Source of the DNA: Escherichia coli
Lineage (GTDB): Bacteria; Pseudomonadota; Gammaproteobacteria; Enterobacterales; Enterobacteriaceae
DNA: 64,000 nt
Assembly (NCBI RefSeq): GCF_041248615.1
Contig: NZ_CP158426.1
Strand: one strand, 5' to 3'
Shown here: positions 9,540 to 14,260 of the stretch, piece after piece
How positions within the stretch are numbered: the stretch's first letter is position 1
Layout of the letters: each line of letters begins with the position of its first letter
Translations under genes and position numbers: made by a program
The notes under the pieces: generated by a model
What the model was told of the DNA's origin: nothing
The model's input: only the letters and a program-made list of their open reading frames with translations
Databases searched by the model: none

Positions 9540-10382
9540 TCAGGCTGAGAGCACAGAAGGAAAGTACCTGGCTATTATATCGTTAATTCTGTCAATCAGT
9601 TCCAGCCTTTTGAAAGTGATGTGTGCAGATCCCTTCTTAAAGTATTTAATGATGAACATCTCGTCTTCATAGCGCTCTTTACCCTGAACGGACTGGATGT
9701 GACCATCCAGACGAATAGTGATGTTTTCCCGGTTGTCGGGGATCGGTTTGCCGCTGAACAGATGTAGCATTCTTTCCAGGTCGACGAGTCGGTCAGTCTG
9801 TTGCCCGGTGATAAGATGAAACCCCCACCGGTCCCACCTCACCAGGTTGTTGACGATAATTTTACTGCCAAATTTGCAGGGGCAATTGGTTTTGTAATTC
9901 CAGCTCAGTCCCCTGAAGACGTTGATCACCCCTCGCTCAAACACCTCATCCTTATTCTGGTGTAGTTGTTCAAATGTGATCAGAATGTTCGCTTCACTGA
10001 TTTCCGGAAAATTATCGTACTCCAGTGACCGGTACCATGTATCACGGGCCTGTGCATCCATTAAGGAAAGCATCCCTGAACGTTGCATCAGGTCACGCCA
10101 GATTTCGCGATCGAGATTGCGTGTGATGGCTTTCATTGCGGTTTCCGGTTTCTCCATCAGCCAGCAGCCGCAGCGAAAATCCTGTTTCATGGCCCAGCCC
10201 GGGGCGGCTTTACCGCCAATACTTTCTGTCATTGCTGATATTTCAGCCAGTTGCCGGATAAGTGTGTCGATTTGCAGCAGTGTACTCTTTCGTACAGCCA
10301 GAATGTGGCGGATATTGGTTGAGCAGATAACGTCCGTATGCCCGGTGACCACTTCCGGACGGGAGATTGTGATGTCTGACAT
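9540..10382 (-). CDS. hypothetical protein (DUF4942-like, usually found distal to yeeW in CP4-44-type modules)
   Basis: 280-aa ORF; family assignment from memory of co-occurrence, not verified. Confidence 0.55.
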   Translation of the reverse strand: MSDITISRPEVVTGHTDVICSTNIRHILAVRKSTLLQIDTLIRQLAEISAMTESIGGKAAPGWAMKQDFRCGCWLMEKPETAMKAITRNLDREIWRDLMQRSGMLSLMDAQARDTWYRSLEYDNFPEISEANILITFEQLHQNKDEVFERGVINVFRGLSWNYKTNCPCKFGSKIIVNNLVRWDRWGFHLITGQQTDRLVDLERMLHLFSGKPIPDNRENITIRLDGHIQSVQGKERYEDEMFIIKYFKKGSAHITFKRLELIDRINDIIARYFPSVLSA

Positions 10383-10466
10383 TATCGGTTTCCCTTTTGG
10401 TTTATAAACGAAAACGCCAGCCCTGTTCAGGCTGACGTCAGTGGAATGAAGTATGGTGAGTGATAT

Positions 10467-10889
10467 TTACCGGTTCTGGTGCAGAAGCTGCAGGTGACGA
10501 AGAGTACGGACATCCTCCCGGGCCTGTTCGATACAGGGCAACAGTGCTGCCGAATCCGTTTTATCCTCATCGTTGTCAAAGATAATTCCCGATTCGCAGT
10601 CGATATTGTCCTGCAGCCACGCAATGAGGATATCCAGCGCTGTTTCAGTGGTTAATGGCATCACGCTCTGTATCACTGTATTGTCTTCCGGCAACTGATG
10701 AGGGCTGGCAGAAGTCGCCGGTGTTTCGGTAGCGTCATGTTCATCCACCACGCGGAGTGAATAACCGTTTTCAGCGACTTTGTTAATCAGTTCAGCGAGC
10801 TTAATACCATCGACGTCAACGACAATGCGCCCCATGTTCAGCGCCTGCGCATTAATGCTGTCGGCTTCCAGCGTCAGGGCCAGTTTCAT
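10467..10889 (-). CDS. yeeW: YeeW-like protein
   Basis: 140-aa ORF immediately downstream of cbtA, 4-nt overlap; matches remembered YeeW N-terminus. Confidence 0.6.
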   Translation of the reverse strand: MKLALTLEADSINAQALNMGRIVVDVDGIKLAELINKVAENGYSLRVVDEHDATETPATSASPHQLPEDNTVIQSVMPLTTETALDILIAWLQDNIDCESGIIFDNDEDKTDSAALLPCIEQAREDVRTLRHLQLLHQNR

Positions 10890-11263
10890 TGTTTCGCCTC
10901 CGGATGCTTACCCAGAGTAATGTTATTTACTGTTCGGTAATTGTCGCGGGTCATCAGGCCGGTCGCCCTGCGAGCCCGGAGGATATCGATGCTGTTTATT
11001 AACTGAGAGCGGGTACAGGCGCTGAATCCCGGCTGGTCGGTACGCACCAGCGCGTATTTTTCCACGAGAAAGTTCACCGCATCACACAGTGAAATGCCTG
11101 CCTCAATATGCTGCTCAATCACACGTTCATCAGCGAACGGTGTGTCATTCAGTGTGAGGCCGTAATGCTGGTCCAGCAGTCGGGTGAGCAGTGTATGCCA
11201 GATGGTGACGGGAGACGGGCAGCACGATGCCTCCCGTACGTGTGTGTCAGGTAATGTTTTCAT
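10886..11263 (-). CDS. cbtA: type IV toxin CbtA (YeeV family, cytoskeleton-binding toxin)
   Basis: Start trimmed to internal Met (MKTLPDTHVREAS...); about 125 aa; near-identical to remembered CbtA/YeeV. Confidence 0.85.
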   Translation of the reverse strand: MKTLPDTHVREASCCPSPVTIWHTLLTRLLDQHYGLTLNDTPFADERVIEQHIEAGISLCDAVNFLVEKYALVRTDQPGFSACTRSQLINSIDILRARRATGLMTRDNYRTVNNITLGKHPEAKQ

Positions 11264-11309
11264 CTTAAGTTCTCTGTAACTGGTAGTGCTAAAGGTGAGA
11301 TATTCGGGG

Positions 11310-11684
11310 TTATGAGGTGGTTGCGGGTGCCAGTGTCGGATAAACAGCCATATAAACGTAACCACAGGAGCCGAGGGTGTCGGCTTCACAGGCCAGCCCC
11401 TTCGCATACAGTGTCACGGTATGCTGATGGCGGGGATTCAGTTCACCGCTGGTGAGCATGAGCTCCAGTTGTTTCATCAGCAGCGGAAAGGCCTGGTCCA
11501 GGTGGTACGCATCTGCATCGCTGAACAGGCCTCTGATACCGGCGCGGTCGGCAAGGTAATGCAACCGGTTACCCTCCTGCACCAGACGTGCCCCGAAACA
11601 GGGCGTCACGGTGCAGGGCAGCCCCCACCAGGGGCGGTCGTGATTGTCGTCGGGAAGTGTTGTCCCGGGGAGTGTGTCTGACAC
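11310..11684 (-). CDS. cbeA: antitoxin CbeA (YeeU family)
   Basis: 124-aa ORF MSDTLPGTT...HQHTVTLYAKGL... matches YeeU/CbeA; directly upstream of cbtA. Confidence 0.85.
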   Translation of the reverse strand: MSDTLPGTTLPDDNHDRPWWGLPCTVTPCFGARLVQEGNRLHYLADRAGIRGLFSDADAYHLDQAFPLLMKQLELMLTSGELNPRHQHTVTLYAKGLACEADTLGSCGYVYMAVYPTLAPATTS

Positions 11685-11759
11685 GATAAAATCCTCACAG
11701 AAAATCGGTTAAGAATGGTCCGGTAGTGGCGATAATTCTGCTCATCAGAATGCCCTGAC

Positions 11760-12526: not shown

Positions 12527-12541
12527 TGTTCCTGCCCCCTT

Positions 12542-13027
12542 TCAGTCAATAATGCGCATAATGGCGTCGTATTCCGGATGTTGCAGGGCGTAATCCCGCA
12601 GCCGGTAATAATGGACCGTCATGGCATAACACTCCGTACGACAGGCATGATGACTGTACGTCATCAGACAGGCAGCAATGCCGGCGGCTTCCGGGCTCAT
12701 TTCAGCGCGGTTACTGTTCATGACATTGAACAGTACCCATGTTTCGTCATCATCGTCATCCGGTTCGGGTGCCATAAATGCCCCTCCGTTATTCAGTGTG
12801 TACAGATTCCAGATACCACCGCAGTAGTCTTCACACAGACGGTCCATCCAGCCGAAGACACGGGGCTCCAGGGTCACCCACTGTGGAATGAGGCCAAAGT
12901 GCTGTGGCCAGAAGCTGATGCACTGTTCATCAGGGACGGGAGTGGCAACCAGTTGAGACTGGTTATTCCCTGATGCAGTAGTTACGGAAACAGAAGGTGT
13001 GGTGGAATTATGTGAAACGGTTGTCAT
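12542..13027 (-). CDS. antirestriction protein (ArdB/KlcA family, YfjX/YafX-like)
   Basis: Conserved ...FWPQHFG...WMDRLCEDY...YTLNNGGAFMAP... sequence; start placed at the second Met, alternative start at 13051. Confidence 0.8.
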   Translation of the reverse strand: MTTVSHNSTTPSVSVTTASGNNQSQLVATPVPDEQCISFWPQHFGLIPQWVTLEPRVFGWMDRLCEDYCGGIWNLYTLNNGGAFMAPEPDDDDDETWVLFNVMNSNRAEMSPEAAGIAACLMTYSHHACRTECYAMTVHYYRLRDYALQHPEYDAIMRIID

Positions 13028-13117
13028 GATATTATTCCTTATAAAAAGCAAATGAATGAAGAAGGCTCGGGGGCAGGGACAGACGTGAGTCAGGACGGCG
13101 CTTTCAGGTAAACGGTA

Positions 13118-13936
13118 TCAGCGCATGTTCTCCAGCAGCGTTTCCGCCATCACCCATAATGCGCGATTGAGCTTAATATCGGTGTCGATGCTGTGAATGG
13201 CCCGGGTATGGATACGTTTTCCTCTGGCACTGCGGCCGGAAATTCCGCCTTTCAGCATATTCTCCTGGATGGTCTGATATGCGCTCCACAGGTCCTTACC
13301 GTAATCCTCCCTGCGTCGTGGCGTAAGAATGTCAGCGGTGGTGACGGGCTGATGTTCGTCACCATAACGGTAAGTCAGGGCCGCCTGTGCCAGCGCCTGG
13401 CGTGCCGGTGGCGGCAGGACCAGCGACTGCATGGCATCACGCTTCTCCTCTATCCGGTCAAACACGCCCACCACCTCGTAAGCCCCTTCGATAACTTTCT
13501 CCACTACATTTCCCCGGTGTGGAACACGCACTTCCCCCAGAGACTGGCCACAGACGCACCCGTTCTGGCAGACGAACCTGAAGTAACCCGGCAGCATCTG
13601 GTAGCTGGAGGTACCGTCATGAGAGTTGAGCAGAATAATTTCAGGGACATGTTCTCCGTTTATCTCTCCGGCCCGCCGCAGACGCAGCATGTGTTTGGTA
13701 TATTCCCGGCGGCTCTGGTCGCGCACACGGGTCTGGCAGGCGAAGAACGGCTGAAAGCCTTCCCGCTGCAGATTTTCCAGGACGGTAATGGTGGGAATGT
13801 ACGCATACCGTTCACTGCGGGAGGTGTGCCGGTCTTCCCCAAAAATACTGGGTACATGGCGTATCAGTTCTTCATGTGTCAGCGGACGGTCACGGCGTAT
13901 CTGGTTTACATGACCAAAACGACTTGCTAATCGCAT
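13118..13936 (-). CDS. DUF932-family protein (YfjQ/YafZ-like)
   Basis: 272-aa ORF in the position typical of CP4-type modules. Confidence 0.75.
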   Translation of the reverse strand: MRLASRFGHVNQIRRDRPLTHEELIRHVPSIFGEDRHTSRSERYAYIPTITVLENLQREGFQPFFACQTRVRDQSRREYTKHMLRLRRAGEINGEHVPEIILLNSHDGTSSYQMLPGYFRFVCQNGCVCGQSLGEVRVPHRGNVVEKVIEGAYEVVGVFDRIEEKRDAMQSLVLPPPARQALAQAALTYRYGDEHQPVTTADILTPRRREDYGKDLWSAYQTIQENMLKGGISGRSARGKRIHTRAIHSIDTDIKLNRALWVMAETLLENMR

Positions 13937-14026
13937 GATTTGCTCCTTATGAATGAGTTAGCGGTATAAATGAAAAAGCCGCGTCTTCTGGAGAAGACGC
14001 GGCCTGATGGATCAAGTGAATGACGT

Positions 14027-14260
14027 TTATTGCCTGAGAATTCCCTCACTGGCGAGATACGGATTTAGCTGTTTTCCGGCATCAGGTTCAAAATTCCAGC
14101 ACCGCCAGCGTAGCTGCCCTTCAGCATTGCGAATAACCAACCGGGAATATGTTCCCTGGTCATCTTCAGTAAACACATTGCGGTAAGCTGTTTTGACGGC
14201 AACAGCCTGTTCGCGTGAGAAAGGGCCTTCGGGCAATAAACGTGATGTACAACCCGGCAT
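14027..14260 (-). CDS. DUF905-family small protein (YkfF/YfjR-like)
   Basis: C-terminal ...[38 protein letters not shown] matches remembered YkfF-type proteins; start trimmed to internal Met. Confidence 0.55.

Follow-up and report, generated by a model that had tools for sequence, protein, structure and literature searches.

A conserved yee module with a CbtA/CbeA toxin-antitoxin pair at the distal end of a P4-integrase pheV island of Escherichia coli

The window analysed here, a stretch of 64,000 nt of Escherichia coli DNA (contig NZ_CP158426.1, assembly GCF_041248615.1), carries between positions 9540 and 14260 a block of nine genes, among them those of the toxin-antitoxin (TA) pair CbtA/CbeA. 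Very probably this block is the conserved distal backbone, the yee module, of a P4-integrase island of approximately 34 kb residing at the tRNA-Phe gene pheV, and is made up of maintenance and establishment genes rather than cargo. Because the island matches the published description of GI-pheV, the block is the already described yee module of that island and nothing new as an entity; established here are the identity and order of its genes, their open and full-length frames, their adjacency to the attachment site attR, the purifying selection acting on them, and mosaic recombination.

A preliminary description, made from the sequence alone, had named nine genes in this region (encoding DUF905, DUF932, an ArdB/KlcA-like antirestriction protein, a RadC-like protein, YeeT, CbeA, CbtA, YeeW and a DUF4942-like protein), and the open reading frame (ORF) listing together with Pfam bears out both their order and the limits given, which are exact at either end; nine uninterrupted ORFs lie on the minus strand (Table 1), from the ATG of the DUF905 gene at 14260 (with an upstream ATG the frame reaches 14296) to the stop codon of the DUF4942 gene at 9540. 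No frameshift and no internal stop is present in any of the nine. That all genes are intact is thus correct for the frames, which are full-length, but not for “YeeW”, which lacks the PF19419 domain and is called a pseudogene by the NCBI Prokaryotic Genome Annotation Pipeline (PGAP). Positions 9300–14400 are 100% identical to positions 937300–942400 of the chromosome of E. coli NRZ14408 (NZ_LT599825.1), which made the RefSeq/PGAP annotation of that record directly applicable. The contrast drawn between the module and the remainder of the island, eroded by insertion sequences (IS), is real: about a dozen pseudogene and IS fragments are annotated elsewhere in the island versus a single flagged feature (DUF5983) inside the module. 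The eroded part contains IS1414, a truncated ISEc38, two IS3-family elements (one of them degenerate), a Mu-transposase fragment and several gene fragments.

The module is the att-distal end of the island, since pheV and the integrase lie at 42292–43827, attR lies beside the DUF4942 gene, and this repeat is kept in four other loci. In the window attR lies 110 bp past the stop codon of the DUF4942 gene; all four of these loci have the repeat at the corresponding position below that gene, among them a pheV island that lacks kps and adjoins yghD, and a pheU island bordering cadC. Owing to an indel, attR is missed when the tRNA 3′ end is searched for with up to three mismatches; a core-motif search locates it. 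A P4-type integrase adjoining tRNA-Phe, together with an imperfect direct repeat of the 3′ end of the tRNA at the opposite boundary, places the island among the GI-pheV/CP4-type elements. In the pheU island of EC2257 the sequence past the repeat resembles that found past the intact pheV in the window.

GI-pheV is built of modules; intP4 adjoins pheV, attR is imperfect, and a breakpoint precedes kps (PLoS Genet 2024, PMC11537424). Its yee module, described for uropathogenic E. coli (UPEC) and sequence type 131 (ST131), has in common with the one examined here the P4 integrase at pheV, the imperfect attR and the end before kps, and likewise the flu-then-yee arrangement, a mosaic structure rich in recombination, and the fact that most genes are under purifying selection (PMC11537424). 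The present island differs in being only ~34 kb long, in the absence of the classical UPEC modules pap, iuc, sat and nan, and in having flu split by ISEc12. The order GTPase-(IsrC)-flu-...-RadC-DUF987-antitoxin-toxin matches K-12 and the four other loci, and in this sense the gene order is canonical, as had been proposed: it is the conserved flu/yee backbone of P4-integrase tRNA-Phe islands, for which K-12 CP4-44 is a poor template.

Of 5,426 complete E. coli genomes, 3,610 contain at least 80% of the 5.1-kb block, at a median of three places each and almost always on the chromosome; 17,569 places were counted in all, and the NRZ14408 genome itself has four. The core of the module is plasmid-borne in 18 of 72,556 PLSDB records, several of which are evidently mislabelled chromosomes. 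Exact matches to all nine proteins exist in public collections, each protein having the full length that predominates in its cluster, and the exact proteins recur on hundreds to at least 1000 contigs. For the ratio of non-synonymous to synonymous substitution rates (dN/dS) the module genes were compared with three other loci and values were considered where dS exceeded 0.1; under these terms every gene of the module falls between 0.05 and 0.46 (DUF932, 0.10; RadC, 0.06–0.17; CbtA, 0.09–0.36). Within one and the same comparison dS is very uneven among the genes (against AH50, cbtA has a dS of 0.25, whereas DUF932 is identical), in agreement with the recombination between copies of the island that has been published for the yee module.

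Table 1. Features of the yee module and of the pheV island in the window
Feature	Position	Strand	Evidence
DUF905 (YkfF-like), 77 aa	14027..14260	-	Pfam PF06006 2.7e-27; PGAP CDS WP_072650320.1
DUF932 (YafZ/YfjQ-like), 272 aa	13118..13936	-	Pfam PF06067 5.8e-51
ArdB/KlcA-type antirestriction, 161 aa	12542..13027	-	Pfam PF03230 7.3e-35
RadC-like JAB/JAMM (YeeS/LfgB-like), 158 aa	12050..12526	-	Pfam PF04002 5.8e-45; TIGR00608
DUF987 (YeeT), 73 aa	11760..11981	-	Pfam PF06174 1.9e-39
cbeA, type IV antitoxin, 124 aa	11310..11684	-	Pfam PF06154 CbeA_antitoxin 5.9e-54
cbtA, toxin, 125 aa	10886..11263	-	Pfam PF06755 CbtA_toxin 4.9e-63
YeeW-like ORF, 140 aa	10467..10889	-	Pfam DUF5983_N (PF25638) 2.7e-28
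DUF4942, 280 aa	9540..10382	-	Pfam PF13708 1.2e-65
attR, degenerate 22-nt copy of tRNA-Phe 3′ end, TTCGATTCCGATTCCGGCACCA	9408..9429	-	by eye and core-motif search
Terminator-like hairpin just past attR, strong	9373..9399	-	
Terminator-like hairpin downstream of DUF905	14005-13976		
Ag43 (flu), C-terminal fragment	14331..16449	-	Pfam AIDA, AC_1, Autotransporter; PGAP pseudogene
ISEc12 (IS21 family; istA, istB) within Ag43	16450..19029	-	
Ag43, N-terminal fragment	19030..19764	-	
IS102 (IsrC) small RNA	19783-20019	-	Rfam 70 bits, above gathering score
GTPase gene	20137-21009		
P4-type tyrosine integrase, intact	42292..43554	-	PGAP WP_001596139.1
tRNA-Phe (pheV), attL side of island	43752..43827	-	ARAGORN, Rfam

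The module had been likened to CP4-44 of K-12 (flu-yeeR-yeeS-yeeT-cbeA-cbtA-yeeW), which is apt for the TA-proximal half, from RadC to YeeW, where identity is 90–100%, but not for DUF905, DUF932, ArdB, DUF957 and DUF4942, which are lacking in CP4-44. Both loci have a GTG start codon for cbeA (which was checked), an ATGA overlap of the cbtA stop with the yeeW start, and the short yeeW allele; RadC, DUF987, CbeA and CbtA are 98.6, 100, 95.7 and 89.5% identical to YeeS, YeeT, CbeA and CbtA of K-12, respectively. CP4-44, however, carries yeeR in place of the DUF905, DUF932 and ArdB genes and has neither DUF4942 nor an integrase; its YeeS is 10 aa shorter, its yeeW is stopped at 64 aa, its DUF957 is partly deleted, the cbeA-cbtA spacer comprises 88 nt (46 here), and residue 15 of its CbtA is Arg (Cys here).

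The order ArdB-RadC-DUF987-antitoxin-toxin is found, gene for gene, in lfgABCDE of CP4-57 (yfjX-yfjY-ypjJ-yfjZ-ypjF; PMC10846083), and the same five-gene order is present in CP4-6 (yafX-ykfG-ykfH-yafW-ykfI). Like the module, these two loci lie near the att end of a P4-type element, have DUF932 (yfjQ/yafZ) and DUF905 (ykfF) upstream, and encode a toxin with Cys at position 15. They differ from it in that identity amounts to only 59–82%, the toxins are shorter (109–113 aa), the spacer is 20 nt long, extra genes (yfjR-W, yafY, ykfB) intervene between DUF932 and ArdB, and DUF5983, DUF957 and DUF4942 are missing. Counterparts of the DUF905, DUF932 and ArdB proteins are encoded in K-12 by CP4-6 and CP4-57 only, at 59–74% identity (DUF905 with YkfF, 59%; DUF932 with YfjQ and YafZ, 74%; ArdB with YafX and LfgA, that is, YfjX, 63–67%), and DUF4942 is absent from all three K-12 elements. 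None of the three K-12 prototypes is as complete as the module, as CP4-44 lacks DUF905, DUF932, ArdB and DUF4942, and CP4-6 and CP4-57 lack DUF5983, DUF957 and DUF4942.

The type IV TA copy in the module is probably functional, judging from its sequence. CbtA covers positions 1–112 of the 112 of the PF06755 profile, as a full-length toxin does, and its exact sequence occurs on at least 1000 contigs; the antitoxin gene lies directly upstream on the same strand, and CbeA matches the YeeU structures 2INW and 2H28 in the PDB with E ~1e-79. The spacer of 46 nt is common to strain CUVM53; in K-12, EC2257 and AH50 it comprises 88–89 nt. The FtsZ determinant of CbtA, F65, is invariant in the alignment with the K-12 paralogues, and this residue is needed for FtsZ binding in CbtA, YpjF and YkfI (Heller 2017, PMC5624674). 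At position 15, where K-12 CbtA has the Arg that is its MreB determinant, the protein has Cys, as do YpjF and YkfI. In K-12 CbtA the R15C exchange specifically abolishes the interaction with MreB, as seen in two-hybrid analysis, and the cells become filaments rather than lemon-shaped; Cys15 is the natural residue in YpjF and YkfI, and YpjF binds MreB nonetheless (PMC5624674). The allele has Cys-Cys at positions 14–15 and is a common natural one. Antitoxins of the paralogous pairs cross-neutralise (Wen 2017, PMC5371832). At the same chromosomal site in AH50 (locus 4381-5693), cbeA is frameshifted, the adjacent cbtA is intact, and the long DUF5983 gene contains an internal stop; this cbtA is apparently an orphan toxin, presumably covered by paralogous antitoxins.

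The gene following cbtA, whose ATG overlaps the cbtA stop codon, was taken for yeeW; the N-terminal domain of DUF5983 is indeed there (aa 1–57), but after a linker of 19 residues the same frame continues into DUF957 (aa 76–140), a domain that had not been listed. The 140-aa ORF matches PF25638 only and thus is not a full-length YeeW (DUF5983); longer homologues carry both PF25638 and PF19419. It is ~311 bp shorter than the long-form locus, represented by AH50 with a DUF5983 gene of 486 nt and a separate DUF957 gene, and PGAP renders it as a DUF5983 pseudogene (C-terminus missing) plus a separate DUF957 gene of 65 aa. The junction sequence is present in 917 of the 5,426 complete genomes, and in yeeW of K-12 (64 aa) this allele is cut short by a GAA-to-TAA stop and followed by the partly deleted DUF957. 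A unique recent deletion in the yeeW region was considered and rejected, as the junction occurs in those 917 genomes and in K-12; likewise, the homologues of 100–119 aa do not attest to an ancient DUF5983N-DUF957 architecture, since they are of the K-12-like kind and have lost another internal segment.

In three islands at independent locations the 140-aa ORF is uninterrupted; its dN/dS is 0.15–0.18, and non-synonymous changes are far fewer than synonymous ones in both of its domains. The pseudogene call in RefSeq/PGAP is a probable mis-annotation, and one that amounts to a widespread inconsistency, made as it is despite purifying selection. Because public gene calls include many frameshifted, fused and truncated forms, the DUF5983/DUF957 region is evidently labile, and a function of the ORF is not claimed. 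A PDB sequence search with it returned nothing meaningful, and the AlphaFold2 (AF2) model, built from a shallow alignment, is uninformative (predicted local distance difference test, pLDDT, 39). It is conceivable, though rather improbable, that the ORF encodes a real, selected protein translationally coupled to cbtA through the ATGA overlap and acting as a third partner of CbtA/CbeA, for example as modulator or sensor; yeeW of K-12 would then be a decayed remnant, and in ~17% of complete E. coli genomes the gene would be mis-annotated.

Among the remaining genes, that for the antirestriction protein is assigned by PF03230 and by an ArdB fold recognised through sequence comparison with solved structures: it is matched over its full length and nearly identical to ArdB of CFT073 (PDB 2WJ9; E 6.5e-94), a protein of the same family from which no notable difference was seen, and it is related to KlcA of IncP plasmids (2KMG; E 3e-17), which belongs to the same Pfam family; it also matches the PHROG anti-restriction profile. 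The RadC-like protein, a member of PF04002, was alone among the module proteins in matching NCBIfam; its translation contains the metal-binding HxHx7SxxD (JAMM) motif (HNHPSGEVTPSKAD), and it is 77% identical to LfgB. Homologues of the DUF932 protein with at least 74% identity are found in Salmonella, Citrobacter, Enterobacter, Klebsiella and Edwardsiella; a PDB sequence search with it gave no meaningful relative. The DUF4942 protein covers positions 1–189 of the 190 of its Pfam profile, that is, the full length; the family comprises 2,034 clusters at 50% identity, mostly of stand-alone proteins of ~270 aa. Four of six longer members scanned (460–468 aa) have a C-terminal class I methyltransferase domain; in the 280-aa protein Pfam detects none, and it is not such a fusion. 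A weak match links DUF4942 to the PHROG “DNA methyltransferase” profile, the PDB sequence search yielded nothing meaningful, and for the AF2 model (pLDDT 88.7) a PDB neighbour was not found. Rfam, at permissive as well as gathering thresholds, gave no credible RNA element inside 9540–14260, the matches being sub-threshold and due to chance.

The predicted roles of these genes and their position beside attR are the reason for regarding the module as an establishment-and-maintenance cassette of a P4-type island. By homology, CbtA would bind FtsZ at the H6/H7 loop through F65, and probably MreB too, and thereby block both division and elongation; CbeA would counteract it indirectly, in the type IV manner, acting on the FtsZ and MreB polymers without binding the toxin. 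Paralogous antitoxins encoded elsewhere in the genome could cross-neutralise CbtA, and the cbeA-cbtA pair may favour retention of the island. ArdB, by the same kind of reasoning, would blunt type I restriction upon entry of the island into a new host, and the RadC/JAMM protein may be a metalloprotease by analogy with its CP4-57 paralogue LfgB, which cleaves the antitoxin MqsA (PMC10846083). Several points weigh against this picture. The core domain of DUF5983 is missing from the module. Dual targeting of FtsZ and MreB is uncertain for this CbtA allele, which has Cys15, as R15C abolishes the MreB interaction of the K-12 protein. Neither toxin nor antitoxin autoregulates its operon, and the antitoxin genes are deletable (Wen 2017, PMC5371832), which weakens a classical addiction model. 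Finally, terminator-like hairpins follow both DUF905 and the 140-aa ORF, which suggests several transcription units rather than one operon; a scan for consensus sigma-70 promoters found five sites versus 4.7 expected from shuffled sequence, and promoters are not claimed.

A primary role in the stress physiology of the host is the least improbable alternative, and one that does not exclude retention and establishment of the island as the function of the module but is compatible with it: the RadC/JAMM protease and the TA pair might tune RpoS, survival of oxidative stress, and biofilm formation. [quoted passage not shown] Still, with RadC only 77% identical to LfgB, evidence stemming from one K-12 background, and the linkage to attR, ArdB and the P4 integrase, conserved across many islands, left unexplained, this role as the primary one is a possibility but not a likely one.

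It has also to be asked whether CbtA/CbeA, possibly with its neighbours, forms an island-borne abortive-infection system against phages, given that many TA systems defend against phage, with AbiE as a type IV precedent, and that K-12 relatives of the island contain defence-like genes such as abpAB and rnlAB in CP4-57. None of the nine proteins has a match in PADLOC-DB, however, the linked ArdB is an anti-defence rather than a defence protein, and a phage phenotype is not reported in the literature retrieved; an anti-phage function is highly improbable. The same is to be said of the notion that the region is inert debris of a cryptic element, with ORFs open merely since the copy is young and with no contribution to host or island. 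It would accord with the heavy IS erosion of the surrounding island, with the decay of K-12 copies (yeeW stopped, CP4-44 devoid of an integrase) and of AH50 (frameshifted cbeA, stop in DUF5983), and with the frequently frameshifted or fused gene calls for DUF5983/DUF957. It fails to account for dN/dS well below 1 at substantial dS in all genes and three independent loci, for exact proteins on hundreds to at least 1000 contigs, and for retention of the module, often in multiple copies, by roughly two of every three complete E. coli genomes. It is the selection data and the PADLOC result which speak against debris and phage defence.

Regarding the surroundings, the module does follow Ag43, as described, in that Ag43 is its upstream neighbour, but an ISEc12 insertion divides Ag43 into two fragments. 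These share 7 bp of the intact gene, corresponding to the target-site duplication, and are otherwise 98–100% identical to the intact allele; the C-terminal one represents nt 729–2847 of the intact AH50 gene. A clean insertion between fragments so little diverged indicates that the knock-out of Ag43 is recent. IsrC lies between the GTPase gene and the start of Ag43, in the yeeP-isrC-flu order of CP4-44, and the part of the island at 21239–43554 includes genes for a LysR regulator, an alpha/beta hydrolase, a major facilitator superfamily (MFS) transporter, a Hha/YmoA-family protein and an inovirus Gp2-type protein. Beyond attR follow a remnant of an IS110-family transposase (9027–9209), an AT-rich stretch (36% GC, 8001–9000) and kpsF; positions 1–9209 hold the region 1 genes of a group 2 capsule locus, kpsF, E, D, U (annotated kdsB), C and S.

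The importance of these findings is small and mainly one of bookkeeping. The distal boundary of the pheV island is fixed in this genome, with attR at 9408–9429 directly before the kps capsule locus, and a functional TA copy would bear on the stability of the island and on cross-talk with the other copies, the block being present in four places in the genome. Two by-products are the inconsistent annotation of the 140-aa ORF and the CbtA allele with its natural Cys15; the latter carries Cys where the R15C exchange removes MreB binding from the K-12 protein, and it might be a toxin directed against FtsZ only, although YpjF, likewise C15, binds MreB.

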